A stretch of 57,759 nt of DNA from an uncultured archaeon (GCA_964645535.1 CAZYCQ010000002.1:63851-121609), one strand, 5' to 3'. Positions 4,289 through 55,444 are shown, numbered from the stretch's first letter. The notes: a model not told the origin generated them from the letters alone. Translations and numbers: made by a program.

Positions 4289-7200
4289 GTGGAGACCAGC
4301 ATCGATAGGGATATCATCTCGGGATTTCTTGAGTTCTTCAAGAACTTCCAAGATGAGGACGGACAATACAAATATTCAGATGAGATCACGAGAATCATCA
4401 TTGACGGTGAGCGGAGCTTGGTCATTGACTACAATGATCTGTATCTCATGGATTCAACCCATGAACTGGGACTGAGCTCTGCTTTACTTGAGTTTCCCGA
4501 AAAAACCATTGAACTTGGTACCATCGCCTTGGAGACCCATATCAAGGAGGAAAATTTCGATTATTTTCAAGAAGTCAAAACCATCAATCGAAGCAGGTTC
4601 CACGTCCGTTTCGTCAATATTCCTTCAAAGACACCGCTGCGGAACATCCGCACTAATCAATTGGGTACCTTCAGAGCTGTTGAGGCGATTGTTGTCCGAA
4701 CAACAGAGATCAAACCCATGATTGATGAAGGGTTCTTCATCTGTAAATTGAATCCTGAGCACCAATTCAGGTATTCCCTGAATCAAGGAACCTTCAGCTC
4801 ACCAAGGCAATGCATAGAACCGTCCTGTAAGAGCAAAGATTTCACACTCTCGATTGAGGATTCCACCTTGATTGATTGGCAAGGACTGACGCTTCAGGAA
4901 AGACCAGAAGAGCTCCCCTCAGGAACCAGTCCGAAATCACTGAATTGCAGGCTTCTTGACGACTTGGTTGATAAGGTCAGACCAGGGGACAGGGTGATTG
5001 CCACCGGAATTGTTCGGACAAAAAGCCCAGAAGGATTGAAAAAAGGCAAGCAGGCTATTCTCGACATTTGGCTGGATGTAAACTATATCGAGCCACTGAA
5101 TAAGGAAACAGACCTAACAGAAATTTCCTTGGCCGAAGAGGCAGAATTCTATGAATTGGCAGAAAATCCGGACATCTACGAAATGATCATCCATTCCTTG
5201 GCACCCCAAATCAAGGGATTGGAAAGGGAAAAGGAAGCGATCATGTACTTCCTTTTTGGAGGGGTTGACAAGCTTCATCCCAACGGCTTCAAAAATAGGG
5301 GACAGCCCAACATCCTTTTGGTGGGAGACCCGGGTGTGGCAAAATCCCAATTATTGAAGGCGGTGCATAAAGTAGCTCCAAGAGGTGTCTATACATCCGG
5401 AAAGGGATCATCGGCCGCAGGTTTGACGGCAGCAATTGTTCGGGATCCTGATACAGGAGAATTGACCCTTGAAGCAGGAGCAATGGTTCTTGCAGATAAG
5501 GGAGTCTGTCTGACAGGAGATACAGAGATAATGCTCGGGGATGGGAGAATCATGCCGATAGAGGAGATTTACAAACAGGGGAGAGGGATGGAAATCCTCA
5601 GTTTCAACCAAGAAACATTAGAACAGGAGATCAAGCCTGTTAAAGCGGTTTCTCGTCGGTTTTCCAAGAAAATTTACGAACTTACATTTGAAACAGGAGA
5701 CGTTTTGAAGGCGAGTCCAGAACACCCATTTCCAGTGTGGGAAAACGGCATTGTCTGGAAGTCGGCAGAAGATCTTGCAGAGACCGATTTGGTGATTGAC
5801 TACAGGAGATACAGGTTCAATGGTGAACCGATGTACAACCCTTCAATAATTGAGTTTCTTGGGTATCTCATTTGTCTTGATTCAGAGGGGAAGATCAAGA
5901 TTCACCAAGAACTTGAGGAAACTATTTTCAGAATCAAAAGTCTTGCGAAAATACATAATCTTCCCTACAAGCATCTTGGAGATTCCATTCAATTTGAATG
6001 GAAATTGGTATCGCCAAGGTTGAAGAATTCAATTGGCAGGATCATTACAGGAAAGAAGGACATCATTGCCTTCCTTTACCAATTACGACCCGAAGAACTC
6101 CGACCTGCGATTACAGCATTAGCCAATCTCAGAGGAAGGTTTACGGAAACCGGGAATTTCATTATTGCAATTGAATATGGAATGGCAGAACCTATCAGGA
6201 AAATTCTGCGCAAAGTTGGAGTGGCAAGTGAACTGAATGGAGACAATATCAATATTTCCGATTACAGTAGCTTGTGCAGATTGAGTTCCTCCCGTTTTGT
6301 CCAATCCCTCCAAGTCATGTTCAACAATCAAATTCGGAAAAGAAGAAGATTAAACGAGAAACAACATGGAAATAACCTATTATATCAATTTCCGGAACTT
6401 GAACCACTGATTGAAAAAGGTCAGCAGGTCATGGTCGGAGAGAAGACACAAATGATTGAACCGTTTGAGGAAACTGCCATAAAGTTTGTCACAAATGACC
6501 TTGCATTCAACCACCTTGTGAAAAAACGGGAGCTTCCTGGAGAGAAGGTCTACAACCTCCAAGTGGAGGATTCCGAGACATACTTTGCGAATTTCATTCC
6601 AGTGCACAACTGTCTGATTGACGAATTTGATAAAATGAGCGAGAATGATCGATCTGCAATCCATGAGGCCATGGAACAACAGACAATTTCAGTTGCCAAG
6701 GCAGGGATTGTTGCAACACTGAATTCCAGGACAGGAGTTCTTGCAGCGGCAAATCCAGTACATGGAAGATACGAAGACCACCGGACATTTGTGGAAAATG
6801 TCGACCTTGGACCGACAATCCTCTCCCGTTTCGATCTCATCTTCATTCTCAGGGATATCCCAGATGAAAAGGAGGACGAAAGTAAGGCCATGCATATCCT
6901 AAACCTGCACATGAATTACGATACGAATTTGGTTGAGGATCCGCCAATACCTTTGGACAAGCTGAAAAAATACATTATGTTTGCCAAGCAGAAATGTGAA
7001 CCGAGATTGACTCAAGAAGCCATTAACACCATCCAAGAATTTTATGTCAATCTGAGGAACAATGTGAAGAGAGGAGACAGGAATGCCATTCCCATCACTG
7101 CAAGACAACTTGAAGGGATTGTGCGTTTGGCAGAAGCTCGGGCAAGAGTTGCATTAAGGGACAAGGTAACCAAGCAGGATGCTCAAAAGGCAATTGACTT

Positions 7201-7489
7201 GATGGTCTACAGTTTGCAGCAGATAGCCATTGACCCCGAGACCGGAGAATTGGACTATGATGCCTTTGCAAGTGGCCATACCAGCACCAAGAGATCCCGC
7301 ATCTCCCGACTGATGTCGATCATTGAAAACCTCCAGAGCATTTCCTCGGGTCCGTTCGAAGAGAAAGATGTATATCGTGAGGCAGAGGCAGAGGGACTTG
7401 ATCTGGAATTTGTTCAAAAGGCGATTTATGACCTCGTACGTCAAGGTGCGCTTTACCGTCCGGAAGCAGGAAAATTAAGCAAGCTGTAA
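4289..7489 (+). CDS. mcm: Replicative helicase MCM, intein-containing
   Basis: Zn finger, QERPEELPSG, Walker A GDPGVAKSQ, SSAAGLTAA, Walker B IDEFDKM, LSRFDL, ITARQLE, C-terminal winged helix. Confidence 0.97.
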   Translation: METSIDRDIISGFLEFFKNFQDEDGQYKYSDEITRIIIDGERSLVIDYNDLYLMDSTHELGLSSALLEFPEKTIELGTIALETHIKEENFDYFQEVKTINRSRFHVRFVNIPSKTPLRNIRTNQLGTFRAVEAIVVRTTEIKPMIDEGFFICKLNPEHQFRYSLNQGTFSSPRQCIEPSCKSKDFTLSIEDSTLIDWQGLTLQERPEELPSGTSPKSLNCRLLDDLVDKVRPGDRVIATGIVRTKSPEGLKKGKQAILDIWLDVNYIEPLNKETDLTEISLAEEAEFYELAENPDIYEMIIHSLAPQIKGLEREKEAIMYFLFGGVDKLHPNGFKNRGQPNILLVGDPGVAKSQLLKAVHKVAPRGVYTSGKGSSAAGLTAAIVRDPDTGELTLEAGAMVLADKGVCLTGDTEIMLGDGRIMPIEEIYKQGRGMEILSFNQETLEQEIKPVKAVSRRFSKKIYELTFETGDVLKASPEHPFPVWENGIVWKSAEDLAETDLVIDYRRYRFNGEPMYNPSIIEFLGYLICLDSEGKIKIHQELEETIFRIKSLAKIHNLPYKHLGDSIQFEWKLVSPRLKNSIGRIITGKKDIIAFLYQLRPEELRPAITALANLRGRFTETGNFIIAIEYGMAEPIRKILRKVGVASELNGDNINISDYSSLCRLSSSRFVQSLQVMFNNQIRKRRRLNEKQHGNNLLYQFPELEPLIEKGQQVMVGEKTQMIEPFEETAIKFVTNDLAFNHLVKKRELPGEKVYNLQVEDSETYFANFIPVHNCLIDEFDKMSENDRSAIHEAMEQQTISVAKAGIVATLNSRTGVLAAANPVHGRYEDHRTFVENVDLGPTILSRFDLIFILRDIPDEKEDESKAMHILNLHMNYDTNLVEDPPIPLDKLKKYIMFAKQKCEPRLTQEAINTIQEFYVNLRNNVKRGDRNAIPITARQLEGIVRLAEARARVALRDKVTKQDAQKAIDLMVYSLQQIAIDPETGELDYDAFASGHTSTKRSRISRLMSIIENLQSISSGPFEEKDVYREAEAEGLDLEFVQKAIYDLVRQGALYRPEAGKLSKL
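5507..6610 (+). mobile_element. Intein (368 aa) just before MCM Walker B, with a degenerate LAGLIDADG-type insert
   Basis: ADKGV|CLTGDT...ASPEHPF...VYNLQV...YFANFIPVHN|CLIDEFDK; the internal FLGYLICLDSEG resembles an eroded LAGLIDADG block. Confidence 0.93.
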
Positions 7490-19700: not shown

Positions 19701-22700
19701 ATGGGATTATCCAGAAAATCAAAATGCAATCTAATGTTTCTGACATTGACCAACTCAGACCATTGCTTCATCTCGACCAAACATGGAAAGAAGAACGGAC
19801 GGCAACACCATCTCATTTTTGAGAAAACCGCCTTGGAAAGGTTTCTCGAACGGATCTATCCAAGAACTTACGTAAAGTGGGCACTTGCGGAGGGAATTGG
19901 ATTTGAACTCAATCAGCTGGTGAAAAGGCAGCTCATCATCTTTGCCTTGGAAATGGACAGAATTGGCCTGCAACAGTTCCTCTGCAACAGTAAAGTCCAT
20001 CGTTTCTTTGTTTCCTCAAATCGCAAGGTTCTCACCAATGTTTTCAACACTATTCTTGTACCGATTGCCGCAAGGGCAAAAATGATGAATGATCTGCGGG
20101 ATACATCAAAACTCAGGATAAGCCAGGTTCTGGAGGATTTGCCGATCAAGACGGGAAAGTTCAGCAATGCCGCAGATCGGCTGGAATATATCCTCAGCGG
20201 AATAGTCAATGCAATGCTTGGCAGAACCATTTTTTTCAGACAGCTCTTGCAGGGAATGAAAACACTCAATATCTTTGAGCATCCCAACCTCACGGAAGAT
20301 TTCAGTGAAATTGGAATTGTCTCCATCAAAACCATCGATAGGGATACCATTGAACAGCTCCGGAAATACACATCCCTACCATTGACGGAAAAGCATGTAG
20401 ATGCCATTATCCATGCCTACTCCCTTGGAATCCGGTTCCGGAAATCTGCAACATTTTCTCAGAACAAACAGGGAAACGATCTGCTCGTGAAATTTGATCT
20501 CACAGATATCACGGCCATCATGAACGAATTGCATGGACATCTCCCTGAAGAAGACATGCCTGTAGTGGAAACCTTCCTTAGATCCGAAAAGGAACCAAAA
20601 AGAATCATCAAAATGGAGATGAAAACCACCGGAGGCTATCCTCGTAACCTTCTCAAAAATCTCTATGACTTGGAGACTTCAACCGCATTCAGGTTTGGTG
20701 CCGATTTTCTGAGATCCCACTTTTTCGATTTGAAAGGAGTATTGGATAATTGGAATTCTGAATTTCCATACCTGCAACTCGATGTGAATCAGCCTAGAAG
20801 ATATCTTGATCCAACCCCCCTTCAAGACACCAAGAAATTTCCACAAGGATTGACCACAATTCTGAATACGGAAAGAAGAACTCGGTCAAGGCTCATCAAA
20901 AGCATTGTCAAACAAGATTTCCTGAAAAGGCTCCCAGAGCAGTTCATTGAGAAATATCTCATCCCCTACCTTGAAACCCTCCAATCAACAACCGATGCAG
21001 CCATCTTGGAGGAATGGCTCAGATCAGGAAACGTTATCAGACCGAACATGAATGCCATCATCGACTCCTCTCAGCAGGCTTATTCATATGTGAAACAAAC
21101 AAAAATCCAAGTGATTACTCCAAATGGAATGAAGGGGTGGATCTGTCTCAGAAATGACAAACCGCCATTCAGAATCGAAAATAACCAATTGGTGTTTGGA
21201 CCGGATCTGGTTGATGAGACAGGCAGACCTATCATGGACAATCCATTCAAGATGCAGGAGCCAGAACTGAAAGAGATACTCAACCAAGCAATAGGGGAAA
21301 TCAAGAATCAACTCCCTTGGGTCATGAAAGACAATCCTGCACAGGCACTCTTCACAACCGAACAGATCAAGGCAATTCAGGAATTCATCAATAGAATCGA
21401 ACACTTTGAAAGTGTACCCGACAACATCCCTCCATCCGTCAAGAACCTACTCATCCAATACCTTAAGGATCGATTGATCAGAAATCCCTCTTTTGGATTA
21501 CCCGACATACATGTGAGAACAATTAAGGGATATGGAAACCATCATTTCCATCGCCTCTTGGAATTTCTTTCTCAAAACAGGTTCATCTCGCCAGACATGT
21601 ATGACGAATTCATACTTACACTCCATACTGCTCCAAATATTCGACCACGCAATAGCATTCCCCTTGGAACAGAAGAAATATTTGCATTCGTCGAACTGCT
21701 CCCACCAAGCTACAAGGCATACCTTGAAATCGACAACTGGACTTTTGCACCTGATTCCAAACCAATCTCATCTACCAGACCCTTACAACCCAGACAAATC
21801 AACACCATCGTCAACAACAATCCCAAGGAATTAACCATGGCCACCAACATCAACCCCCAGTACGGTGCCCTCTTTTTCAGAAAACCAGTTGGACTCAAGA
21901 AAGTCCACTTTCCAACCAAAAAAATACATCTGAACACAAAAATCGTCTCATTCACCGGAAGCCTGTTCGATCTCTCAAGATTCAACGTCGTCCCAACCGA
22001 TGCCTCCCTGCAAGACATCGCACCACAATGGAGAGAACATACCTTCGTGGGTACAAATGCAAAGGGTAGTCTTGTCAAAGCCCTTATGGAAGCCATTGAT
22101 GAACCACAAAATCATAATCCCGCCATGGAACTCATCTACTTCGGAGATACAAAGACTGCAATCGGAGCATACCTGGCCCCGTTGTTCGATCTGCTAGATA
22201 CACCATCCAAACAAAAAATAACTGCAATCGCAAAGAAACATGCCACTACCATCGCAACCAAACTCAAAGAAAAAACCATTGTCAGATCCATCGAAAAAGG
22301 AAAACTAAAGGTTGACTCCACTCAGTTCCAAGCATTCCAGCACTTCAAGATCAACCATAACAACGCCATCCTTTGGTATGTCGATGCCGTCATGGAAAAA
22401 CCAAAACTTAATGCAAACCTCAAAATCAGAAAGGGAATCGATGTCCTCGCAGCACTCACATTCGATCCAACCAGAATCTCAAAGCCAAACAACTCATTCA
22501 GAATCACCCAAATTATGATCGTAAAGAAAGTCAAAACAGGACCCACACAGGCCCAAAAACTGCTTCAACTCCAAAAAGGCATACTCACCTATGAAATGAT
22601 GCTCCTAAATAAGGCACGAACCATCACAAAAAATAACCTCAAACAGATCAGAACCGCTTTCACCAAACTTAGAACAAGCAGAAACAAACCATACCAGTTC

Positions 22701-23030
22701 TCCAAAAAAACACTCCAAATTGCTCCCTCCATCATTACCCCCTCAAATATCATCAAAGCACCATCTGGCCAAATCATCCCATTCACCAAAAAATTTACAC
22801 CCTACTACTTTGCATTCGATAGAAACCATCTCATCGGAAAACACAAGAAAACTCCCAAGATTGATCCAGAAGAAATCATCAACCAACTCTTCCTGACCAA
22901 ACAAGAACTTCAAAAACATCTCAACATACCAATGAATACCTTTCTCAGCAAACTAAGAACATTGAACAACCAAAAGGAAATCCAGAAGTTCTGCCAACTC
23001 TCCTTGTCAACCAAAAAAAAACATAAATAA
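19701..23030 (+). CDS. Large hypothetical protein (up to 1109 aa)
   Basis: 3.3 kb open frame; no family recognised; start uncertain. Confidence 0.75.
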   Translation: MGLSRKSKCNLMFLTLTNSDHCFISTKHGKKNGRQHHLIFEKTALERFLERIYPRTYVKWALAEGIGFELNQLVKRQLIIFALEMDRIGLQQFLCNSKVHRFFVSSNRKVLTNVFNTILVPIAARAKMMNDLRDTSKLRISQVLEDLPIKTGKFSNAADRLEYILSGIVNAMLGRTIFFRQLLQGMKTLNIFEHPNLTEDFSEIGIVSIKTIDRDTIEQLRKYTSLPLTEKHVDAIIHAYSLGIRFRKSATFSQNKQGNDLLVKFDLTDITAIMNELHGHLPEEDMPVVETFLRSEKEPKRIIKMEMKTTGGYPRNLLKNLYDLETSTAFRFGADFLRSHFFDLKGVLDNWNSEFPYLQLDVNQPRRYLDPTPLQDTKKFPQGLTTILNTERRTRSRLIKSIVKQDFLKRLPEQFIEKYLIPYLETLQSTTDAAILEEWLRSGNVIRPNMNAIIDSSQQAYSYVKQTKIQVITPNGMKGWICLRNDKPPFRIENNQLVFGPDLVDETGRPIMDNPFKMQEPELKEILNQAIGEIKNQLPWVMKDNPAQALFTTEQIKAIQEFINRIEHFESVPDNIPPSVKNLLIQYLKDRLIRNPSFGLPDIHVRTIKGYGNHHFHRLLEFLSQNRFISPDMYDEFILTLHTAPNIRPRNSIPLGTEEIFAFVELLPPSYKAYLEIDNWTFAPDSKPISSTRPLQPRQINTIVNNNPKELTMATNINPQYGALFFRKPVGLKKVHFPTKKIHLNTKIVSFTGSLFDLSRFNVVPTDASLQDIAPQWREHTFVGTNAKGSLVKALMEAIDEPQNHNPAMELIYFGDTKTAIGAYLAPLFDLLDTPSKQKITAIAKKHATTIATKLKEKTIVRSIEKGKLKVDSTQFQAFQHFKINHNNAILWYVDAVMEKPKLNANLKIRKGIDVLAALTFDPTRISKPNNSFRITQIMIVKKVKTGPTQAQKLLQLQKGILTYEMMLLNKARTITKNNLKQIRTAFTKLRTSRNKPYQFSKKTLQIAPSIITPSNIIKAPSGQIIPFTKKFTPYYFAFDRNHLIGKHKKTPKIDPEEIINQLFLTKQELQKHLNIPMNTFLSKLRTLNNQKEIQKFCQLSLSTKKKHK

Positions 23031-23066
23031 CCAAAAGAAAATCCCAAATTGGGATACGTCCCTTTT

Positions 23067-23149
23067 GACACCGTTCTAGAGCCTGGTACTAGGCTGGACT
23101 GCTAATCCAGTGCCCTATGGGCGCGCGGGTTCAAATCCCGCCGGTGTCA
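23067..23149 (+). tRNA. tRNA-Ser(GCT)
   Basis: Acceptor GACACCG/CGGTGTC, D-stem CTAG/CTAG, anticodon arm CTGGA-CTGCTAA-TCCAG, long variable arm GCCC-TAT-GGGC, T arm GCGGG-TTCAAAT-CCCGC; CCA not encoded. Confidence 0.93.
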
Positions 23150-23255
23150 TCAATCTACAACCAATTTTTCACTTCACACATTAACTTATATTGCAAAAAG
23201 ATACGAATTCAAAGGGCGGCGAAGGTTTTAATAATTGCAACCCAAATCCCTGTTG

Positions 23256-23978
23256 ATGCTTGACAATGATCTTTTGGAAAAGAGATTATCAAAGTGGATC
23301 GGATATGGGAATTTACAAAGTGATTTTTGGATGTTAGGTATGGAAGAGGGTGGTGAAGTCAACCGAAAGATGATAAATGTGCGGCTTTCGCTTCCAGAGG
23401 TGGGTGATTGGCATCATGCAATGGAAAAGATGGCGGAGGCAGGAGGAATCGAAAACAAATGGATACGTGCGCATCCATCGCTTCAACCCACATACTACAA
23501 GATCATCAGAATTTTTCTGATTGCAACTGGTCGAGATAGCCCCAACCTGAAGGAGAAGGCAAGGAAGTTTCAACGCGATCAATTTGGTAGAAAAGGAGGT
23601 GATCATTTAGTAGCAGAACTGATGCCTTTGCACAATCACAACCAGTCACATTGGATTTATAACAGGTTTTCAAATAGACCAGACCTTTCAAGTCGGGAAT
23701 CCTACATGAGGAAATGGTTAGGCAGAAGAATTAAGCTTTTCAGAGAGTTGATAGAGGAGTATGACCCGAAAGTGGTTCTTGCCTATGGAAAAGGGTATTG
23801 GGATCATTTCAAGCTTCTAGGTGAAAGGAAATTCAAAGAAATTCTTGATGGGTTTGCGCAAACAGACGGGCGAATTGTGCTTATCCCCCATCCTACAGCC
23901 AAAGGGCTAAAGAATAGTGATTTCGATGAGGTAGGAAATTGGATAAAAGAAAACATCTATTCAAGCAGATTATTGTGA
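23256..23978 (+). CDS. Uracil-DNA-glycosylase-superfamily-like protein
   Basis: GYGN..FWMLGMEEGG (motif A-like), PKVVLAYG, LIPHPT (motif B-like); ATG at 23256 preferred over TTG at 23235. Confidence 0.55.
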   Translation: MLDNDLLEKRLSKWIGYGNLQSDFWMLGMEEGGEVNRKMINVRLSLPEVGDWHHAMEKMAEAGGIENKWIRAHPSLQPTYYKIIRIFLIATGRDSPNLKEKARKFQRDQFGRKGGDHLVAELMPLHNHNQSHWIYNRFSNRPDLSSRESYMRKWLGRRIKLFRELIEEYDPKVVLAYGKGYWDHFKLLGERKFKEILDGFAQTDGRIVLIPHPTAKGLKNSDFDEVGNWIKENIYSSRLL

Positions 23979-24216
23979 CTATGATTTTGATAAAATTATC
24001 CAAAAGGAAAATATGGAGAGAATGATATTCTTGTAAGCATAAATGGATAATTTTAACGTGCAGGTACAAAAATCCAGTTTGAAAGTTCTTCATCCTCGTT
24101 TCTGGGGTTCTGAACGGAGAATGAAAAATCAGGAAGGCAATTGGTTTAAACAGAAGACAAATCACTTGTTCAAAAGGTCATGCATAATTTTTTACGTACA
24201 TCAGGATAAATTAGTT

Positions 24217-25425
24217 GTGGAACGAAAGCAACTTCTTGCCATTTTTGGAATACTGATGATAGGATTGATCATGGGCCCCTATGTTCATTTCCAAGCTTAC
24301 CAACAATTCAGGACAGATCAACGCAGATATGGAAAAATATACGATATTCAATGGGTGGATAACCCTGAATTCCTGAACGTTACTGACAGGAAGGTACGGG
24401 GGAATCTGGAGACTGCTAATTACCGGACAATATTGAGAGATCATACAATATATTGGTTGTCATCTAGAGCTGATGAGGAGGGAAACATCGATGATTATTT
24501 TCTTCTGGAGATTGAATTTTCGGAGAATTTCAAATTTGTCAAGACCCTTAAGCAGATTGATCTTCCCTTCATATCAACTTCAGATTTTCGGGGGTTTGAC
24601 GTTGTCAATGGCCATTATTTTACCCTTCAGACGATCAGCGCGAATAACATTCCTGAATTGAACCTTTTGGAATTCAATTCGAGCGCAGTCATATCTAACC
24701 GGACGCTGGAGCTATCCAAGCACGATGACAATCTCTTTGATTCAATTAGATTGGATTGGTTCCAGATTTATGGAGGAAACCTTTTTACAATTGAAAGATT
24801 CTATCTTCCGGTTTCAGAGGGAGGAGCGTCCGTCTATTCAAACATTTTTTCCCGTTTGGTAAAATATGACCTTGATGATCTTTCGCAGATCGATGCAGTG
24901 AATCTAACATTTCCATATGTAAGGAGTAGCTCTATCAGGAATGGATCCATTTGGGTGGAATATGGACACCTTCCATATGAGAACATCACCTACTATGCAT
25001 CATCATCACAAACCATTACCTCAGGTTATTATGAATTTGATCTTGAAGCCCTCTTCAAGGGGGATGCTGAGGTCAAAAGTGCTGTCTTTCGCCATCATGG
25101 GATTTTTTCACCATATCCGTTTTTTGTCAATTACAATGGAAGCATGGTGGATTTCAACAGGCATAGATCCATTCTTGCGGAATCAGCATACATCATCCCT
25201 TATTCCTATAGATTGAGAGCCAATGATGAGGTATTGGCAGGTTTTGAGATTCTTGAAATGACAGAGCGAAACATTAACTATTACATTGATGACGTAGAAA
25301 TGGCAAAGGTGTTCCTCGGCTATTCAATTATTGTCATGATCCCTTTCATTTTGCTTTGGAGAAAGGTGAAGGGAGAACCAAATTTCAATAATGGATATCT
25401 GACAAATCAAGATAACAACAAATGA
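24217..25425 (+). CDS. Membrane-anchored extracellular protein of unknown function
   Basis: N-terminal hydrophobic LLAIFGILMIGLIMG, beta-rich body with several N-x-S/T sequons, C-terminal TM; GTG at 24217 preferred. Confidence 0.7.
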   Translation: MERKQLLAIFGILMIGLIMGPYVHFQAYQQFRTDQRRYGKIYDIQWVDNPEFLNVTDRKVRGNLETANYRTILRDHTIYWLSSRADEEGNIDDYFLLEIEFSENFKFVKTLKQIDLPFISTSDFRGFDVVNGHYFTLQTISANNIPELNLLEFNSSAVISNRTLELSKHDDNLFDSIRLDWFQIYGGNLFTIERFYLPVSEGGASVYSNIFSRLVKYDLDDLSQIDAVNLTFPYVRSSSIRNGSIWVEYGHLPYENITYYASSSQTITSGYYEFDLEALFKGDAEVKSAVFRHHGIFSPYPFFVNYNGSMVDFNRHRSILAESAYIIPYSYRLRANDEVLAGFEILEMTERNINYYIDDVEMAKVFLGYSIIVMIPFILLWRKVKGEPNFNNGYLTNQDNNK

Positions 25426-25520
25426 GCCATTGCAAGACATGTTCTCAGAAACATTTGGACAAGAAGAGTGTTCAAAAAAACACACAATGAGCCATCCTCC
25501 ATTCAATCAGGAAGATTTTT

Positions 25521-26018
25521 TCAGGAAAGGAGTTTCAGCCTTCTGAGCAGATTAATCTGACCGACATGGTGTTGTTCATGACGATGGATGTGGAAGAGAG
25601 CCCACTCAAGAGTGGTCGATCCCATCTTTGATTCGAACATCCGATCAAGATCTGTCTCATCGAATTGCTCAAGAAATTCCAAGACATTCAGTCGCACTTC
25701 TTTCAAGGTTTCAAGATAGAATTCCAGAGGTTTTCCAATTCGTTGGGGGATACCTATCCTCAATGGAAAGGCGTACTTCCATTTCTCAAAGTCGATTTCC
25801 TCTCCTGCAATATGTTCAAAGATCCACGAGTTCTCAACATCCGCGATATGGAAGAGCATAGTGCCGACAGTTTCAATTCTTGCCGGATCTGGACTGAAGT
25901 CAAGCTCATCTTGGGTGATTCCCTCAATTTCCTTGAGGAGATAATTGCGGGTATCTTGGAGCATCCCCTTTAGCAGCCCCATCCGGTCAGAGGTCACTTT
26001 CGGAATTTCCTTGGTCAT
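25521..26018 (-). CDS. DinB/YfiT family protein
   Basis: TVGTMLFHIADVE..W and LFHIHRHEQHHVGQI His triad. Confidence 0.9.
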   Translation of the reverse strand: MTKEIPKVTSDRMGLLKGMLQDTRNYLLKEIEGITQDELDFSPDPARIETVGTMLFHIADVENSWIFEHIAGEEIDFEKWKYAFPLRIGIPQRIGKPLEFYLETLKEVRLNVLEFLEQFDETDLDRMFESKMGSTTLEWALFHIHRHEQHHVGQINLLRRLKLLS

Positions 26019-26088
26019 AGGATGACCACACCAAGTAGCAATAAAAACATATCTGCCCAGAGGAAGACCCTTTTATTTCTCAGAATGC

Positions 26089-27051
26089 ATGGAAACTGAA
26101 ATGAAGGCAGTTTATTTCATGCGATACGGTCCTCCCGAAGTTCTCGAAATGAAGGAGGTCGATACACCTATTCCCCAAGAAAATGAAATATTGGTCGAAA
26201 TTGAGGCGCGAACCATCTCCATGGGAGATTGTGAGGTAAGAAGCTTTACCTTCCCTCATTGGATTTGGTTACCCATCCGTCTCGCTTTTGGGATCAGAAA
26301 ACCACGAAACAAGATCATTGGTCAGGATTTTGCAGGGAAGGTGGTTGAGGTCGGTTCGAAAGTCACTCATTTCGAGGTTGGAGACAGGGTGACGGGAAGT
26401 ACAGACTGGAGGATGGGAGCCTATGCGGAATACATTGTGAGACCAGAGAGTTCCGTCATAGCAAAGATTCCTGAAGGAGTAAGGATGGAGGATGCAGTGA
26501 CCCTTCCCCTTGGAGGGATGAACGCCCACACATTCGTCAAATTGGGAAATTTCAAGGAAGGAGATGAGGTTCTTGTCAATGGTGCAGGGGGTACGATCGG
26601 CACCTATGTATTGCAGTTGCTCAGGAATTCCGGAATTGAGGTGACTGGGGTGGACAGTGAAGAAAAGCTAGGCTTATTGCAGGAGTTGGGTGCGTCGCAG
26701 GTACTTGATTACAGAAAGGTGGATTTCACCCGTCTTGACAACAAATATGACGGCATCATCGACATGCCGGGAAAGATTAATTACAGGAGGGCACTCAGAT
26801 GTCTAAAGGAAGACGGAAGGTTGATCCTGACCAATCCGCGTGCAAGTGCCTTATTTAGATCAAGGGTGTCTGAAAAAGTCATAACTGGTATTGCATCTGA
26901 GGATCGAAAAGATCTTGAGACGCTATTAGAAATGCTTGCCACAGGAAAGATTCGGGCGGTAAATGACAAAAGGTTTGCACTCGATGAGGTTGTTGCAGGG
27001 CATGAGTATGTGGAAAGTGGAAATAAGAAGGGAAATGTGCTCCTGGTCTGA
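26089..27051 (+). CDS. MDR-family NAD(P)-dependent oxidoreductase (quinone-reductase-like)
   Basis: YGPPEVL, GQDFAG, GAYAEY, NGAGGTIG, KKGNV. Confidence 0.9.
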   Translation: METEMKAVYFMRYGPPEVLEMKEVDTPIPQENEILVEIEARTISMGDCEVRSFTFPHWIWLPIRLAFGIRKPRNKIIGQDFAGKVVEVGSKVTHFEVGDRVTGSTDWRMGAYAEYIVRPESSVIAKIPEGVRMEDAVTLPLGGMNAHTFVKLGNFKEGDEVLVNGAGGTIGTYVLQLLRNSGIEVTGVDSEEKLGLLQELGASQVLDYRKVDFTRLDNKYDGIIDMPGKINYRRALRCLKEDGRLILTNPRASALFRSRVSEKVITGIASEDRKDLETLLEMLATGKIRAVNDKRFALDEVVAGHEYVESGNKKGNVLLV

Positions 27052-27143
27052 TATGAGTATATTTTTTGGTTCGGAATAGGAGGAATGAAGTAGAAAGATA
27101 GAAAAGTAGAAAAATTTATCATGGATTTAATCAATATGACGAT

Positions 27144-27410
27144 ATGGCTGCAACAGTCAAGTTGAAAGATGAGGACAAGAAACGGCTAGATCGGTTAAGA
27201 GCAAAACTTCTCCTTGCAGGGGTCAATTTGAAACAGGAGGAACTCCTTTCTCGGTTAATTGATCTTGGGGAGAATTTTCTGCCCGGATTGGATCAACTTC
27301 AAATGAAAAAGCTGTCTGGGGAAGAAAAGAAAAGAATCATGGCCAGAAAATACAGACTAGGAGGAAAATCTTGGAAAACAATAGATCAAGAACTTTATGG
27401 AGGGAAGTGA
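27144..27410 (+). CDS. Putative VapB-type antitoxin
   Basis: 88 aa, RHH-like TVKLKDEDKKRLDRL, C-terminal IDQELYG; abuts the PIN gene. Confidence 0.7.
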   Translation: MAATVKLKDEDKKRLDRLRAKLLLAGVNLKQEELLSRLIDLGENFLPGLDQLQMKKLSGEEKKRIMARKYRLGGKSWKTIDQELYGGK

Positions 27411-27830
27411 ATGGCAATTCTCCTTGACACAAGTTTTCTTTATTCATTTTTTGACGAACAGGACAAATATCATAATGATGTTAGAAAATTCTATGCAATG
27501 ATGCTTGATGGAGAATATGGAGTACCTATCCTTTTGGATTACGTTTTTGATGAATTTATCACACTTGTACAAATCCGGACTGGAAGGAATGATATTGCAA
27601 CGGAGTTGGGGAAGCTATTGTTGGAGGATTGTGAAAGCTTTATGATGTTTTCGTGGGTCAACTCAAATGAATTCTGGAAGGCTTGGAATCTTTTCCAGCA
27701 TCAGGAAGGATCAAAATTTCTTTCTTTCACGGATTGTATTTTGATTGAGTTTGCCAAGACCAATAGAGTTGGTCAAATTGCCACCTTGGATCGACATTTC
27801 AGATCGTGGATGCACACAATTCCCGAGTGA
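27411..27830 (+). CDS. vapC: PIN-domain VapC toxin
   Basis: ILLDTSF, VFDE, LSFTDC, IATLDRHF acidic PIN residues. Confidence 0.88.
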   Translation: MAILLDTSFLYSFFDEQDKYHNDVRKFYAMMLDGEYGVPILLDYVFDEFITLVQIRTGRNDIATELGKLLLEDCESFMMFSWVNSNEFWKAWNLFQHQEGSKFLSFTDCILIEFAKTNRVGQIATLDRHFRSWMHTIPE

Positions 27831-29054
27831 TCAGGCGTACCAGATGCCGACGGGCACGAATATCTCCTTGGTGGAAAGGGATCCATGCTGACCCTTATGG
27901 GGAGTGTCATAATGCTCGAGTTCCACCACCTCGGGCACATCATGGATGTAGCCGTCCTCGAACATCAGCACATGGCTTCCGACTCGTTTGAGGAAATTAT
28001 CACCGCAGACCTTTGCACCCATCAGATCAAGTGCTTCATTTCCGGTCAGGATGAGTCCCCGACCGTTGGCCAACTGTTCAAGAACTCGAAGTGACCTATC
28101 CGGATCGTCGGCGTAGGAATGGATGACTCTGCCGCTGGTGCCAAGGGTGACGCCTCTTGCCTTATGTTCTGCCCACTCTGCACGGCTCATGAACCGGCAT
28201 TGTTTGAGATCCAGTTGAGATTGTCCATGATCACTGGTTAGGAGAATGAGAGTGGAGGTTCCAGCAAGAGTAGCAACAAGGTTCTTGACAAATTGATTGA
28301 TTGCATGTATGGCATGGACATATTCATTTGATTCAGGCCCATGGCGATGGCCAAGATGATCTGCCATGCCAAGATAGATGCCGAGGAATACGGGTCCATT
28401 GCGGATGACACCCACTGCCTTTTGCAGAGCCTCTTCAAGATCAGTGTACGAAAGCCGATCTGTTCCTTGACCGATGATATCAGGCAGTCCTTCAGGGGGC
28501 AATTGAGAAGGAATAAGAAGTTTGATGGTGAATTGATCGGCAATTTGCATTGGAAGGGGAGTTCCCCGGATGTAGTCAGCAACAGTCGCATGTTCGAAGA
28601 TGCTGGCGGAGCTCTTTCCTTTGGGATATTTGCCATTGAGGCTGTTGAAGAGCGTATTCAGTCGTTCGCTGTAAATATTGTAACCGACCATGCCATGGCA
28701 GGCAGGAAGGGTGCCATAAGCCATGGAGGTCAGATTGGTGGACGTCATGGTGGGAAAGACGGAATATGCGACGGTTCCGTGGGTTTGTACGTTTTCCCAA
28801 AGGTACCCTCCAATTCGTTCAAGATGTTCAGCACCAACACCATCGGCCATGATAAAAACGATGTTTTCATAGGAATCGGTGGCATTTCTGATTTTTTTGA
28901 GGACATCTCGGTTGATGGCACCGGTTTCCCCAAGGAAAGGAGCAAGAAGTGCAGGAAGTGCACCTGCATTTGTGCGTTCAAGGTCGGGACGGATCAGTCC
29001 CAAAGGTTCGTCAAGATAACTGGGACGTATCCCGAACGTTTCAAGGAACTCCAT
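27831..29054 (-). CDS. Alkaline phosphatase superfamily protein (nucleotide pyrophosphatase/phosphodiesterase type)
   Basis: ADGVG, SVFPTMT, DHLGH, TSDHG, GQHGS. Confidence 0.88.
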   Translation of the reverse strand: MEFLETFGIRPSYLDEPLGLIRPDLERTNAGALPALLAPFLGETGAINRDVLKKIRNATDSYENIVFIMADGVGAEHLERIGGYLWENVQTHGTVAYSVFPTMTSTNLTSMAYGTLPACHGMVGYNIYSERLNTLFNSLNGKYPKGKSSASIFEHATVADYIRGTPLPMQIADQFTIKLLIPSQLPPEGLPDIIGQGTDRLSYTDLEEALQKAVGVIRNGPVFLGIYLGMADHLGHRHGPESNEYVHAIHAINQFVKNLVATLAGTSTLILLTSDHGQSQLDLKQCRFMSRAEWAEHKARGVTLGTSGRVIHSYADDPDRSLRVLEQLANGRGLILTGNEALDLMGAKVCGDNFLKRVGSHVLMFEDGYIHDVPEVVELEHYDTPHKGQHGSLSTKEIFVPVGIWYA

Positions 29055-29093
29055 GGATCACCTGTGATTTGGGGATTAATGAAGGTTCTGCGA

Positions 29094-29714
29094 TTATTTG
29101 TTTTGTGTGACTTGAATAAAGGAATCTCTATGGAATTGGATCTCAATCTCTTCTGAAGATTTCTGTTTTGCTTCAAGACTGAGGTAGGTTTTGGTATCCA
29201 ATGGTCGGTTATGGAAGAGGTGTTGAAGATCATCTTTAGATGTGTGCAACTCGATGTTGTATGGGCTGATGGTCTTGACCATTCGATGAGGAACGAGCAT
29301 GCGTTCGGAGGAAAAGCCCAATTTTGAGAGGTATGAACGAAGCCCACCGCCACCGATAATGAAGGAAACCTTTCTGTCCTTATGGAAAATCACATCAAGG
29401 ATCTGACCCACATTTTCTCCTTGGGCATCAAATACCTGCTTTGTTCGGAGCGTGGTGAAAGAAAGACCTTGTGGCTCTTCCTTTTCAAGAGTTCTCACAT
29501 ATTTTTTGGGCACTTTCAGCCGAACTTTGCCCTCTACCTCAAGGATTTGTTCAGGTTTGATGAAAAACACATCCTTTCCTTTACGTGAGACGAAGTATTT
29601 CAGAGAAAAATCGGGATCAAGGATGAAATCGAAAATCCTTCCAAGATCCTGACCATCAAAATCGATCACCTGGCGGTGTTCCATGTCCTCATAGAGCTCG
29701 GGTTCGCTTGACAT
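29094..29714 (-). CDS. Tandem PRC-barrel domain protein
   Basis: Two repeats: QVIDFDGQDLGRIFDFILD and QVFDAQGENVGQILDVIFH. Confidence 0.8.
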   Translation of the reverse strand: MSSEPELYEDMEHRQVIDFDGQDLGRIFDFILDPDFSLKYFVSRKGKDVFFIKPEQILEVEGKVRLKVPKKYVRTLEKEEPQGLSFTTLRTKQVFDAQGENVGQILDVIFHKDRKVSFIIGGGGLRSYLSKLGFSSERMLVPHRMVKTISPYNIELHTSKDDLQHLFHNRPLDTKTYLSLEAKQKSSEEIEIQFHRDSFIQVTQNK

Positions 29715-29928
29715 CGTATATAATTCGTCATTGAATAAGATAAATCTTTTCCCTTGTTGGGTAGCAGCGATGAAGCTGTAATAATTTCTGATCTTTTTGT
29801 GTGCGACGGCAGTCCATTTTTTTGTCGTTGGGTCGTGAAAATCAGTCCAACCTATGAAGTCATGTTTTTTTTTTGGAATTTGAGAGATCCAAGGGAAGAA
29901 GGATAACCAAATGACAGAGAAAGGTTAT

Positions 29929-30351
29929 TCAATCGAAATGGAGAATGTTTAGACCAATTTCTTCAGAATGGATACGTTGGATCGAGAGATCAAAGGCTTG
30001 GATGGTTATTTCAAGGGTAGGGCCAACTACTCCCTCCTGGAGATGACCGGAAATTGTTGAGAAATCCCGTCTTCCAAGAACGACGTGCGGGTGGACGTAA
30101 GGGGTTCCATCCTTCACGGTGATGTTGCCGGTTAGGGAGGTAACTTCCATCGGTTCTGCAAAGACCTTTTCCACAAATGTCTTTTCCTTTTGGTTGAAAT
30201 ACCTGAGAGTTGCTTCTTTAACAGCTCCAACTGCCATGAGTGTCCCACTAGGGATAAATTGATCCTCAAGGAATGCCAAAAGGGTTTCCATGATTTTTTC
30301 ATCAGGATCCAATCTGAGGAAAAAGATTGATCCATTTCCTTTGAATTCCAT
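29929..30351 (-). CDS. PPC domain (DUF296) protein
   Basis: LRLDPDE, VGAVK, EVTSLTGNI, HPHVVLG, GHL. Confidence 0.9.
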   Translation of the reverse strand: MEFKGNGSIFFLRLDPDEKIMETLLAFLEDQFIPSGTLMAVGAVKEATLRYFNQKEKTFVEKVFAEPMEVTSLTGNITVKDGTPYVHPHVVLGRRDFSTISGHLQEGVVGPTLEITIQAFDLSIQRIHSEEIGLNILHFD

Positions 30352-30463
30352 AAGTAAGTCTCTTCTTTGAGATTATTAATATTTCTTGAAGAGAGTTTGG
30401 GGATGGCTGTAGTGAAATTGGTGCTTCCGATAGCCTTTAACTCAGTGAAGGCGTTATCAGTAT

Positions 30464-31498
30464 GTGGAAATTGGAATCGACAGCTTTGCAGCAGCCAAAA
30501 ACGAGAGCGGGAATGCCAATGTTCAGGCGATACAGGAAGTGATTGAACGAATTGTTGAAGCAGATCGGAGCGGTCTTCACTTTTTTGGCTTAGGGGAACA
30601 TCATAGACCCGAGTTCTTGGATTCAGCAGCCCACATGATACTTGCGGCAGCATCCCAACAAACCTCCAAAATCAGGCTTGGAAGTGCAGTGGTGGTGTTA
30701 AGCGCCGCAGACCCTGTCAGGGTTTTCCAAAATTACGCCACCTTGGATTTATTGACCAATGGCAGGGCAGAGATTGTTGTAGGAAGGGGTTCCTTCACGG
30801 AGGCGTTTCCCCTATTTGGCTACTCACTGCATGACTATGATGCCTTATTTGATGAAAAATTGGATCTTCTATTGAAAATACGTAAGAATGAAAGAGTGAC
30901 ATGGTCAGGAAGGTTCAGACCACCTTTGAATGATCAGCCAATTTATCCGAGACCTATCCAAGAGTCACTTCCTATTTGGGTAGGGGTTGGAGGAACTCCA
31001 GCGTCATTCCAGAGGGCTGCACGATTTGGGTTACCCTTAATGGTTGCCATTATTGGAGGCGAGACTCGACGGTTCAGACCTTTGGTAAATCTATATAGAA
31101 ACGAGTTCATGGCATCAGGTCATTCCCAAAAGTTCCTTAAGGTGGGAGTGCATTCACAGGGATATGTGGCTGAAACCACTGAAGATGCCATTCGGGATTA
31201 CTATCCAGGATATAAGGAGATGTTCGACCGGATTGGACGGGAACGGGGATGGCCTCCTGTAACCATGGACAGGTTCCTCTTTCAGGCAGGACCGACAGGG
31301 GCGTATTTGATTGGCGATCCTCAAACAGTTGCGGAGAAGATCGTTCGTCATAGTAGATCCCTTGGAGGGGTTGTCAGATATACTTTCATGATGGATAATG
31401 CTGGTTTATCTCAGGAGCAGATTCTGAATTCGATTAGATTGATAGGAAAGGAAGTTATCCCGATGGTTCATGATTTGCTTGAGGAAAATGAGCCTTAG
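30464..31498 (+). CDS. Luciferase-like (LLM) flavin-dependent oxidoreductase
   Basis: GLGEHH, IRLGSAVVVLSAADPVRVFQ, GRGSF, GVGGTP. Confidence 0.92.
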   Translation: MEIGIDSFAAAKNESGNANVQAIQEVIERIVEADRSGLHFFGLGEHHRPEFLDSAAHMILAAASQQTSKIRLGSAVVVLSAADPVRVFQNYATLDLLTNGRAEIVVGRGSFTEAFPLFGYSLHDYDALFDEKLDLLLKIRKNERVTWSGRFRPPLNDQPIYPRPIQESLPIWVGVGGTPASFQRAARFGLPLMVAIIGGETRRFRPLVNLYRNEFMASGHSQKFLKVGVHSQGYVAETTEDAIRDYYPGYKEMFDRIGRERGWPPVTMDRFLFQAGPTGAYLIGDPQTVAEKIVRHSRSLGGVVRYTFMMDNAGLSQEQILNSIRLIGKEVIPMVHDLLEENEP

Positions 31499-51554: not shown

Positions 51555-52505
51555 ATGGATGTTGCAATCATCGGTGCAGGAACTATTGGACGACGCCTCT
51601 CAAGAAGTTTCAGGGCTTGTGAACAGACCGAGGTCACCCATGTTGTCGATATCGACGAACACAAAGCAAGGGAACTTGCAGATGAATTGGGGGCGAAGTA
51701 CAGCACAGATTACACAAAGATTATGGACAATGTAGATATTGTCTATGTAGGGGTTCCACCAGCATATCATGCGCAGATCACGATAGATGCACTAAAAAGC
51801 GGCAGGCATGTCATCTGTGAGAAACCCATTGCGGCAACGACTGAGGATGGACTCAGAATGGTGAAGGCTGCGGAAAGCTCCAAGTCCGTTACTGCAATCA
51901 ATCTACCCTTCAGGTTCTCCCCTGCCCTCGAGTACATGAAAGAGACACTCGATACCGGAACCTTAGGACAACTCAAGTACGGGGAACTCCGGTTTCGTTT
52001 CCCCAAATGGCCACGGAAATGGCAGAATGTGGAATGGCTCAAATATCGGGAGCAGGGAGGTCCCCTGAGGGAAGTCGGGACCCATTATTTCTTTGCCCTT
52101 TTCGAATTGTTCAGCAATGTCAAACGGGTCATGGCATTCACCGATTTTGGAAAGGACAATGCCTGTGAGACTCAAAGTCTAGGGATAATCGAAACAGATC
52201 AGGGATTGGTCACACTGAATCTCATCACAGGCGGGATGGAAGACGAGGAAAACACCCTGTATCTCTATTTTGATCAAGGTGTCCTCAAGTTTGCCAAATG
52301 GTACCATTTGTCATTGCAACCGAAAAATGAGACGCTTGTCGAGGATAGGGTAAATGCAGAGCTTGAAATGGTCAAGACCTTTGTCAAGGCCGTGAAAGGA
52401 GACCGGAAAGCAGAAGAAAAGCTCGTCTCCTTCAGGGATGCCCTTGATGCGCAGAAGGTACTTGATGCCGTATATAGGTCAAATGGACAATGGATTGACC
52501 TGTAG
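51555..52505 (+). CDS. Gfo/Idh/MocA family oxidoreductase
   Basis: VAIIGAGTIG, HVICEKP, GGPLREVGTH; ATG at 51555 preferred. Confidence 0.9.
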   Translation: MDVAIIGAGTIGRRLSRSFRACEQTEVTHVVDIDEHKARELADELGAKYSTDYTKIMDNVDIVYVGVPPAYHAQITIDALKSGRHVICEKPIAATTEDGLRMVKAAESSKSVTAINLPFRFSPALEYMKETLDTGTLGQLKYGELRFRFPKWPRKWQNVEWLKYREQGGPLREVGTHYFFALFELFSNVKRVMAFTDFGKDNACETQSLGIIETDQGLVTLNLITGGMEDEENTLYLYFDQGVLKFAKWYHLSLQPKNETLVEDRVNAELEMVKTFVKAVKGDRKAEEKLVSFRDALDAQKVLDAVYRSNGQWIDL

Positions 52506-52557
52506 AAATACCCCAATTGGAAAACCTTTTGGATTAACCATCCTTGGAAGAGGCAGT

Positions 52558-54552: not shown

Positions 54553-54652
54553 TCAATTACAAAAAATGGGCACTCAAAAAGATACCAATGGACATTTTTT
54601 TAAGAACTCAAAACATCAGAAAAAATAACGTCAGCACCCATGTGCTGTACAA

Positions 54653-54737
54653 GCAGGGGTCGCCCAGCCTGGTCAACGGCGTCGGGTTTAGGTCCCGATC
54701 CTTCAGAGGTTCGTGGGTTCAAATCCCACCCCCTGCA
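54653..54737 (+). tRNA. tRNA-Leu(TAG)
   Basis: Acceptor GCAGGGG/CCCCTGC plus A73, anticodon arm TCGGG-TTTAGGT-CCCGA, long variable arm, T arm GTGGG-TTCAAAT-CCCAC. Confidence 0.95.
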
Positions 54738-54743
54738 TTTTTT
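54738..54743 (+). terminator. Oligo-T archaeal terminator after tRNA-Leu
   Basis: T6 immediately after the discriminator base. Confidence 0.5.
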
Positions 54744-54796
54744 AAATCATTTGTTCTTTGCAAAAGGTTATGTGGTACTTTTACTTTTAGGGAATT

Positions 54797-55444
54797 GTGG
54801 TACTTGAGGCAGTTTTTCTTGACGTGGACGGAACCCTGACAAAGGGACCAAGCTGTTGGCAACTTGCTCACCGGCAGTTTGGCGTGGAGGAGCAGGCGAA
54901 CAGGTATTATGAATTGGCGATGCGGAAGGAGATCGACTATGATACTTGGGCACGTCTAGATGTTGAGTTATGGAGAGGGAGGTCGTTTGATGAGTTGTGT
55001 ACGGCTCTTCTTCCCCCGAGACTCATGCAGGGGGTCAAGGAAGGGATAGCTAGGTTCAAAGATCATGGAATCAAGGTCATCCTTGTGAGTGGAGGAATCA
55101 ATGTTTTTGTGGAAGCAGTCAAGGAAGAAGTAAAGGCAGATCTTGCCTTTTCGAACATCATTCATCATGAGGATGGAGTGATCACAGGAAAGGTGGATGT
55201 ACATGTGGGCACCACAAAGCAACCCATTGTAGAACAGGTTGCAAGAGAATTGGATATTGACCTAAACCGCGCAGGGTGCATAGGCGACCATTACAATGAT
55301 CTGGATATGTTCAAGTCGGTCGGTTATCCGGTTGCCTTCAACCCAAAGACAAAAGAGATCAGGCGGGTCGCCAAACGGACAGTCCAAGGAAATGATTTCA
55401 GGAAAGCTGTTGACGCCCTTTTCAGCTTGACAAACGGATTTTAA
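54797..55444 (+). CDS. HAD-IB family phosphatase (phosphoserine-phosphatase-like)
   Basis: DVDGTL, LVSGG, K, GDHYND. Confidence 0.88.
   Translation: MVLEAVFLDVDGTLTKGPSCWQLAHRQFGVEEQANRYYELAMRKEIDYDTWARLDVELWRGRSFDELCTALLPPRLMQGVKEGIARFKDHGIKVILVSGGINVFVEAVKEEVKADLAFSNIIHHEDGVITGKVDVHVGTTKQPIVEQVARELDIDLNRAGCIGDHYNDLDMFKSVGYPVAFNPKTKEIRRVAKRTVQGNDFRKAVDALFSLTNGF

Follow-up and report, generated by a model that had tools for sequence, protein, structure and literature searches.

The strand composition of a 57,759-nucleotide stretch of DNA from an uncultured archaeon (GCA_964645535.1 CAZYCQ010000002.1:63851-121609, referred to here as the window) flips abruptly at a gene for a serine transfer RNA, tRNA-Ser(GCU), the top strand being rich in A and C before the gene and enriched in G at silent sites after it. 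We are highly confident that this flip is one instance of a genome-wide footprint that is anchored on tRNA genes and is independent of the orientation of the genes around them. The footprint is mutational, and does not reflect coding bias, selection or horizontal gene transfer (HGT); it suggests that tRNA genes are the starting points of a DNA process not yet described. The tRNA-Ser site itself is neither a chromosomal origin nor imported DNA. Moreover, the skewed open reading frame (ORF) upstream of the tRNA, P0001, belongs to an orphan family, new here, that is confined to three skew-bearing congeneric genomes. The window corresponds to G000:C2:63851-121609, the assembly comprising 3.62 Mb in 176 contigs, and its gene content is of Asgard type, with an MCM gene that contains an intein, a Gtr1/RagA-Arf GTPase and intron-bearing tRNAs.

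The switch at tRNA-Ser(GCU)

The features on either side of the switch, and a second switch in the same window, are as follows.

23066-23151, + strand: tRNA-Ser(GCU), called by ARAGORN and matched by Rfam RF00005 at 55 bits; the switch point.
20600-23065, no strand: upstream skewed zone, in which the tRNA-sense strand is poor in G and T and rich in A+C.
19701-23030, + strand: ORF P0001 of 1109 amino acids (aa), of the orphan tRNA-adjacent family, with an A+C-rich gradient that steepens toward the tRNA.
18856-19350, + strand: ORF of 164 aa that accompanies the P0001-type ORF, a probable part of the same inserted unit.
23235-23978, + strand: ORF P0002 of 247 aa, without a family, immediately 3' of the tRNA and G-enriched at silent sites.
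24043-31498, no strand: downstream zone with a weaker silent-site excess of G over C in genes of both orientations.
52438-55444, no strand: a further switch of this type, with its centre at tRNA-Leu(UAG) (54653-54737).

The base counts made by hand in the first-pass annotation of this DNA were exact (18 G and 48 C, with 79 A and 35 T, at 22801-22980; 59 G and 19 C at 23281-23460), and both flanking ORFs (19701-23030 and 23235-23978) do lie on the + strand, as it had stated. When calculated in 400-bp windows, GC skew is about -0.1 at 20 kb, falls to -0.53 at 22600-22999 and then rises to +0.26 at 23200-23599, and AT skew is +0.36 to +0.41 upstream of the tRNA, at 22.6-23.0 kb. The build-up of A and C toward the tRNA described in the same annotation is borne out as a gradient along the third positions of a single ORF, P0001, where toward the tRNA GC skew falls from -0.01 to -0.66 while AT skew climbs from +0.04 to +0.50. 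The bias in this ORF is strongest at third codon positions, and in the C-terminal half of the protein K, T, P and H are raised and G, V, D, E and R are lowered.

At 4-fold degenerate (4-fold) sites the GC skew of P0001 is -0.52, compared with a coding-strand genome background of -0.19, while that of P0002 is +0.31, a delta of +0.50 over background. Further downstream, from 24043 to 31498, the per-gene 4-fold deltas are +0.11 to +0.31 in eight of nine genes. The richness in G and T that had been claimed for several kilobases after the tRNA therefore stands in part, as a silent-site excess of G over C on the + strand that extends to about 31.5 kb; there is no downstream excess of T here, and the raw keto skew downstream of tRNA-Ser is -0.007. 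The keto-skew amplitude of the switch is +0.34 to +0.35, which only 0.27% of random positions reach (standard deviation (sd) 0.074), and it ranks 14th of about 31,000 positions scanned in the 3.6-Mb genome. The switch at tRNA-Leu(UAG) has an amplitude of +0.25, with a 4-fold delta of -0.30 in its upstream gene and +0.35 in its downstream gene.

The switch recurs at tRNA genes throughout the genome

A blind scan for switches from A+C to G+T over +/-1.5 kb covered 31,190 positions of the genome (sd 0.067, maximum +0.61, minimum -0.30). Thirteen tRNAs called by ARAGORN are among its top 20 peaks, a further seven top peaks are intron-containing tRNAs that ARAGORN missed and Rfam found, so that a tRNA gene is found within 100 bp of 20 of the 22 strongest switches. 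Amplitude is positive at 35 of the 37 testable tRNA predictions, with a mean near +0.30 against a random mean of 0 (sd 0.074), and the 3.6 Mb hold no fewer than 33 switches that are centred on a tRNA and share this sign. The predictions made by ARAGORN without an Rfam tRNA match (n=2) have amplitudes of merely +0.05 and +0.07 and show no switch. These two calls, tRNA-Asn(att) at C1:17827-17901 and tRNA-Asp(atc) at C22:26612-26707 of G000, one of which lies within a long ORF, are probably false predictions.

We also aligned all ARAGORN tRNAs in a metaplot, each oriented by its own strand. Upstream, mean GC skew is -0.20 in the nearest 400 bp and -0.06 by 3 kb, with an AT skew of +0.23; downstream, GC skew is +0.08 to +0.11 and AT skew is -0.13. 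In bins of 40 bp the change of sign falls across the tRNA gene itself. The first-pass annotation had proposed such a plot, and its suggestion that tRNAs are the foci from which a strand-specific process of mutation or repair acts in both directions is supported by it, as the switch pattern is present over all tRNAs, including at 4-fold sites split by gene orientation. It had also foreseen that other tRNAs might lack a switch, or that the flanking genes might carry their bias with them wherever they lie; other tRNAs do switch, and the bias goes with position and is not intrinsic to the genes. A separate case is a 1673-aa intein-bearing ORF at C11:63405-68426, whose silent sites are strongly C-rich (4-fold GC skew -0.5 to -0.8), increasingly so toward the contig end, which suggests an unassembled tRNA just past that end.

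A switch from amino to keto bases in the top strand is the classical signature of an origin, and its sign is right at 35 of 37 tRNAs, as would be expected if each tRNA gene were a regular chromosomal origin, bound by Orc1/Cdc6 and loaded with MCM. The first-pass annotation had raised tRNA loci as replication start sites, but this is not demonstrated by the present data and we consider it very improbable. There are some 40 sites in 3.6 Mb (at least 33 with a switch of this sign) where one or a few per chromosome would be expected, the skew is gone within 3-4 kb and does not persist over a replichore to a terminus, the genes show no tendency to point away from tRNAs, and the dependence on tRNA orientation described below is unexpected of a symmetric origin. 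No orc1/cdc6 was found among genes less than 5 kb from tRNA-Ser, and the earlier remark that no cdc6 is seen there holds over a wider region, with no Orc1/Cdc6 domain among the ORFs of 15.4-32.9 kb. A repeat scan of 22.9-45 kb returned short chance repeats only, no model-based search for origin recognition boxes (ORB) being made. The sign of the skew is that of an origin, but it would be accounted for just as well by several other processes directed outward.

Mutational character and direction of the footprint

The shift at 4-fold sites has one and the same sign in genes co-oriented with the tRNA, in anti-oriented genes and in intergenic DNA, in keeping with the earlier claim that gene orientation does not explain the flip, and it decays to background over about 3-4 kb. 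Upstream of tRNAs the tRNA-sense strand gains A (+0.07-0.11) and C (+0.055) and loses G (-0.05-0.10) and T (-0.06-0.08) at 4-fold sites, the GC content of these sites (GC4) remaining unchanged while all four bases shift, and downstream the same strand is shifted in reverse, with a gain of G+T. On both sides it is the strand running 5'-to-3' away from the tRNA that is enriched in G+T, over a length of 1-4 kb and at almost every tRNA gene. The two transitions contribute about equally, with log2 odds shifts on this outward strand of 0.63-0.74 for C>T and 0.61-0.71 for A>G, and occur in every neighbour context; no strict sequence motif surrounds them in a neighbour-context test, and an enzymatic deaminase motif, which we had considered, was dropped for lack of a strict context. 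The bias is strongest at silent sites, yet it alters protein composition. Members of the P0001 family provide a further view of its origin, since copies at C107 and C84 are unskewed and the copy beside tRNA-Ser is heavily skewed. Because a gradient runs within one gene, and copies of one family differ according to place, the bias must be positional and not intrinsic to the sequence.

Separately, the + strand has more A than T at 4-fold sites (4-fold AT skew, AT4, about +0.1 to +0.35) in genes of both orientations through most of the window from 8000 to 55000, which may be a larger-scale strand asymmetry underlying the tRNA footprints.

The two sides of the footprint are unequal. With orientation-specific background removed, the delta in 4-fold keto skew is -0.28 upstream and +0.17 downstream of tRNAs (paired Wilcoxon p=0.009), and because the effect is 1.6-fold stronger upstream, the footprint is coupled to the direction of the tRNA. 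The upstream and downstream effects are correlated per tRNA (rho 0.57, p=4e-4).

One possibility is that the footprint is a product of transcription, a strong tRNA promoter that is bidirectional or reads through leaving the exposed non-template strand to be deaminated. The sign would fit on both sides, both deamination-type transitions are present, a role for transcription is implied by the way in which the effect follows tRNA orientation, and elevated mutation has been described in the flanks of eukaryotic tRNA genes (PMC6130373). However, that eukaryotic effect covers tens of bases and not kilobases (PMC6130373), and the amplitude of the switch has no significant link with codon demand, a proxy for expression (rho 0.28, p=0.12). 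There is no switch at the signal recognition particle (SRP) RNA, at the RNase P RNA or at the 5' flank of the 23S rRNA, and no protein-gene promoter is among the top switches of the genome scan. As these other strongly transcribed RNA genes lack the effect, as its antisense (upstream) side is the stronger, and as T-run terminators end the tRNA genes and yet it reaches 3-4 kb on both sides, transcription-associated mutagenesis does not by itself explain the data well, and we regard it as rather unlikely.

The specificity for tRNAs among stable RNA genes, together with the occurrence of deamination-type changes at both C and A, could also be explained by a tRNA-directed base deaminase that is brought to tRNA genes by the nascent tRNA and edits nearby DNA. 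AID and APOBEC enzymes evolved from tRNA deaminases, and somatic hypermutation extends over 1-2 kb from promoters. However, there is no marked context preference, and a strict mirror asymmetry over 3-4 kb is unexpected of a diffusing enzyme; no candidate enzyme has been identified, although no search for one was made. We find this explanation improbable.

Relatives of the archaeon and rearrangement at tRNA-Ser

The genome of the window (G000) was compared with those of its congeners G001, G002 and G003 and of more distant relatives. The amino-to-keto pattern is present at 13 of the 13 tRNAs sampled in G002 and at both of those sampled in G001. The DNA of G000 and G002 is 65-80% identical and saturated for synonymous divergence, and in a synteny comparison of the tRNA-Val(tac) site of G002 with C77 of G000 the skew is weak. 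A different pattern occurs in G012, a complete genome from another family, whose 4-fold sites are purine-rich upstream and pyrimidine-rich downstream of tRNAs, independently of gene orientation (loci L015-L027). NucS and EndoV are present in G012 and were not found throughout the family that holds G000-G003, and because no genome of that family was found to have them, they cannot explain differences within the genus; UDG is present in G000-G002. Repair-gene content might shape the spectrum of the footprint, but does not explain its localisation.

Although the gene for tRNA-Ser(GCU) is 98% identical to its counterpart in G002, it has three different upstream neighbours in three congeners (G000, G002:C13 and G003:C2). 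The ortholog of P0002 follows it in G002, in the same position as in G000, and upstream of it in G002 are two other ORFs and an inverted methyltransferase-HerA-UvrC-FtsX block of 8 kb, which in G000 lies 11-19 kb downstream of the tRNA. In G003 the tRNA is found between UvrC and HerA. On this gene order, tRNA-Ser marks a rearrangement breakpoint, and tRNA genes act as such breakpoints in this lineage. We considered whether the methyltransferase-HerA-UvrC-FtsX block was part of the footprint at tRNA-Ser and rejected this, as its 4-fold AT skew does not change between G000 and G002 even though it is inverted and differently placed.

Elsewhere in the window, at 27144-27830, an 88-aa ORF is followed at once by a PIN-domain (VapC-like) ORF, the usual layout of a toxin-antitoxin pair, and the MCM gene (4289-7489) is split by its intein at about 5528-6610, with no skew switch at the insertion point.

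An orphan family beside tRNA genes

P0001 has both the core homology and the tRNA-adjacent position that define its family. Its paralogs are 22-28% identical in protein and share a conserved core comprising D432, E437, E438, G500, N582, G612 and Y634 (alignments A1 and A2), and the proteins are roughly 1100-1300 aa in size. Among the 47 genomes of the order, the family profile matches only G000, G001 and G002, and it has just 22 matches in 1.84 billion representative proteins; public genome contigs, searched with alignment A1 and with P0001, returned nothing. The family loci in G000 are as follows.

Window 19701-23030 (P0001 itself)
C107:2538-5876
C11:4555-7572
C84:6483-10054
C19:16777-18980
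C7:68209-69684
C24:2553-3284
C42:8508-9275

Seven of these eight loci are 3-422 bp from a tRNA and the eighth extends to a contig end. Six are less than 250 bp away, and the broken copy at tRNA-Gln reaches to 5 bp when its second ORF is counted. The flanked tRNAs are Ser, Phe, Met, Pro, Gln, Ile and Arg, with copies on either side and in every orientation, and four of the copies are C-terminal remnants whose 3' end faces the tRNA. This is the only multi-locus family among the tRNA neighbours of G000. The 164-aa ORF that precedes P0001 in the window has a paralog, 52% identical, at C7:67517-68002, immediately upstream of the family remnant by tRNA-Gln. A separate observation concerns an ORF directly upstream of tRNA-Ser in G002 (L118:9083-9823), which resembles (57% at the aa level) G000 C55:893-1219, beside tRNA-Val(GAC); the two may represent a second, smaller tRNA-adjacent family.

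Neither sequence nor structure relates P0001 to a known protein. It has no match in Pfam, including member-wise searches at E<=1, and none in the ESM Atlas at a score of at least 0.9, the best hits (0.86) being unannotated clusters. A structure model of the whole protein is weak (predicted local distance difference test (pLDDT) 59.5), while that of the core domain, which bears the invariant D432/E437/E438, is good (pLDDT 84); neither model has a Foldseek match at E<=0.001 or a VIA match above Z 5.

The site of tRNA-Gln(UUG) shows how the family may have spread. In G002 a gene lies 150 bp downstream of this tRNA, and its ortholog in G000 (C7:64409-65938) sits 3.7 kb off, beyond the family remnant. 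In G000 the displaced ortholog, the ancestral neighbour of the tRNA, is still skewed, the insert is only weakly skewed, and a one-sided switch lies at the insert boundary. On this comparison of gene order, the family unit is a demonstrable insertion relative to G002, and it is from this one between-species insertion polymorphism that we infer the mobility of the family, which is probably a tRNA-targeting mobile element. The ORF upstream of tRNA-Ser would be an orphan tRNA-adjacent element that inserted there long ago and whose sequence was later rewritten where it stands.

It could be argued that such an element is itself the cause of the footprint, nicking or breaking tRNA genes, or priming synthesis there, so that repeated repair leaves the skew and the copies beside tRNAs are insertions. 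What makes this attractive is the exact co-occurrence of family and skew, as the only three of the 47 genomes with the family are also the three with amino-to-keto tRNA skew among those sampled; in addition, each of the seven tRNA-adjacent loci in G000 has a different tRNA species as its neighbour, and for one of them insertion can be demonstrated by comparison with G002. However, only some 8 of 40 tRNAs bear a copy, no domain or fold of a nuclease, polymerase, recombinase or reverse transcriptase can be recognised in the protein, and, the three genomes being close relatives, their co-occurrence counts as a single phylogenetic event. The case is weakened further by G012, which lacks the family in a profile search, has no tRNA-adjacent multi-copy family in 13 loci, and still has a tRNA-centred asymmetry, albeit of a different spectrum. 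We hold a causal role for the element to be unlikely.

The same data bear on whether the flanks are islands gained by horizontal transfer, which brought a composition of their own when they integrated at tRNA genes. The tRNA genes are classic integration sites, and the upstream ORF is an orphan and insert-like. However, the HGT island reading is contradicted by the gradient within one gene and by the recent inserts, as recently inserted family copies are the least skewed. Moreover, the polarity is a fixed mirror at about 35 tRNAs, the 4-fold shift has the same sign in both orientations of the flanking genes, the neighbours yielded no integrase domain, and the 22 kb downstream contain no repeat of the tRNA 3' end. 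We give this explanation hardly any credence.

A proposed mechanism

We tentatively favour, at a little under an even chance, a footprint left by DNA synthesis, or by exposure of single-stranded DNA (ssDNA), that starts repeatedly at the tRNA gene and runs outward for a few kilobases in both directions. The likely setting would be repair or restart at tRNA genes that depends on recombination or on R-loops, in which the outward-running strand may accumulate deamination damage or misincorporation of the G:T type. The process would be coupled to the activity and direction of the tRNA gene, and would act at hot spots of insertion and rearrangement. The sign of the skew would be compatible with leading-strand-like outward synthesis, whether R-loop-primed, in recombination-dependent restart, or in gap-filling after resection with G:T misincorporation; it would also suit an outward strand exposed as ssDNA, or divergent transcription. 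The opposite sign is predicted if the tRNA is broken and the 3' overhangs left by resection are deaminated, if forks stall on arrival at the gene, or if repriming leaves gaps on the leading-strand template.

A number of observations weigh against outward synthesis or exposure from tRNA genes. The outward direction is deduced solely from the sign of the skew, and a simple double-strand break with deamination of the resected overhangs predicts a sign contrary to that observed. The amplitude of the switch, as noted above, is not significantly correlated with codon demand. At C36:~17000-17900 of G000 (L006:1500-2400) a two-sided mirror switch lies in a 1.2-kb intergenic gap that has no tRNA, and an Rfam search found no RNA gene there. 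Three intein sites, which are potential targets of homing endonucleases and include that of the window MCM, have no switch, although fixed inteins may no longer be cut. Finally, the distribution is patchy, with no effect in G003 (n=6 tRNAs), which bears the same genus label at 35% GC compared with 41%, and little or none in G004, G006, G009, G015, G033, G038 and G042; nothing that we tested explains the difference between lineages.

A more specific version, which we consider unlikely as a whole, is that tRNA genes are preferred starts of recombination- or R-loop-dependent synthesis and so constitute dozens of small origin-like sites that write gradients into their flanks, with the P0001 element homing specifically to tRNA genes, much like the eukaryotic retrotransposons targeted by RNA polymerase III (Pol III), and either exploiting or provoking the process.

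Implications

Local asymmetry between strands is usually interpreted as a trace of replication or transcription. This genome bears about 40 sharp, kilobase-long mirror records centred on one class of gene, which recode the proteins of their neighbours. If they mark the starts of DNA synthesis or break repair, they would be a map, obtained from sequence only, of an unknown DNA transaction. Such a transaction would take place in the Asgard archaea, the archaeal lineage closest to eukaryotes, where tRNA genes are known as barriers to forks, as hot spots of recombination and as targets of transposons. The relatives provide a comparative handle on the cause, as three congeners have the skew, a fourth does not, and another family has a purine/pyrimidine variant of it. 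On a practical level, the skew near tRNAs distorts predictions of codon usage, HGT and origins and creates long stop-free ORFs; it also serves as a tRNA finder that needs no annotation, the seven intron-bearing tRNAs missed by ARAGORN having been located by skew alone.

Comparison with known systems

Several elements are known to target tRNA genes, including yeast Ty3 and Ty1, the TRE elements of Dictyostelium, and tRNA-homing Tn7 and CRISPR-associated transposons (CAST). The P0001 family resembles these in that its copies lie tens to a few hundred bp from many tRNAs, on either side and in part as remnants, but it differs in having no detected reverse transcriptase, integrase, transposase or Cas domain or fold.

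Full-text searches found no description in the literature of a kilobase-scale skew anchored on tRNAs, and the paper on complete Asgard genomes reports cumulative GC skew only (PMC11291895). Intense and correlated GC and TA skews have been reported in GRINS (genetic repeats with intense nucleotide skews), described in 2021, where they are linked to gene conversion, i.e., to recombination, and are defined as duplicated segments of >80% identity within polyketide synthase (PKS) clusters (PMC8256042). Both systems have abrupt keto/amino skews that are strongest at third positions and shift amino-acid use (Pro/Thr/His/Gln versus Gly/Val/Cys/Trp). Upstream of tRNA-Ser the mean absolute GC and TA skews exceed 0.15 and are correlated, as in GRINS; there is, however, no nearby duplication of >500 bp at >80% DNA identity, the paralogs having the low protein identity given above, and there are no long direct repeats. 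The skew of the present genome is found in single-copy DNA around tRNA genes and has a fixed mirror polarity.

Flanks of eukaryotic tRNA genes have elevated C>T and G>A over about 10-40 bp (Thornlow et al., 2018; PMC6130373). The footprint described here differs in its kilobase scale and mirror strand skew, and in its occurrence in an archaeon, without Pol III. With the skew switches at origins (bacterial oriC, archaeal origins and the upward jumps at human origins) it shares a top strand that is A+C-rich to the left and G+T-rich to the right, independence of gene orientation and visibility at silent sites. It differs in having about 40 points per 3.6 Mb, each exactly at a tRNA gene, a decay over 3-4 kb, an asymmetry that follows the direction of the tRNA, and an amplitude far above the usual replication skew of archaea. 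The heavy strand (H-strand) of vertebrate mitochondrial DNA undergoes C>T and A>G changes while single-stranded, in a gradient from the start of strand displacement. There, the asymmetry derives from one origin in a 16-kb genome, whereas here many local gradients are written into a cellular chromosome.

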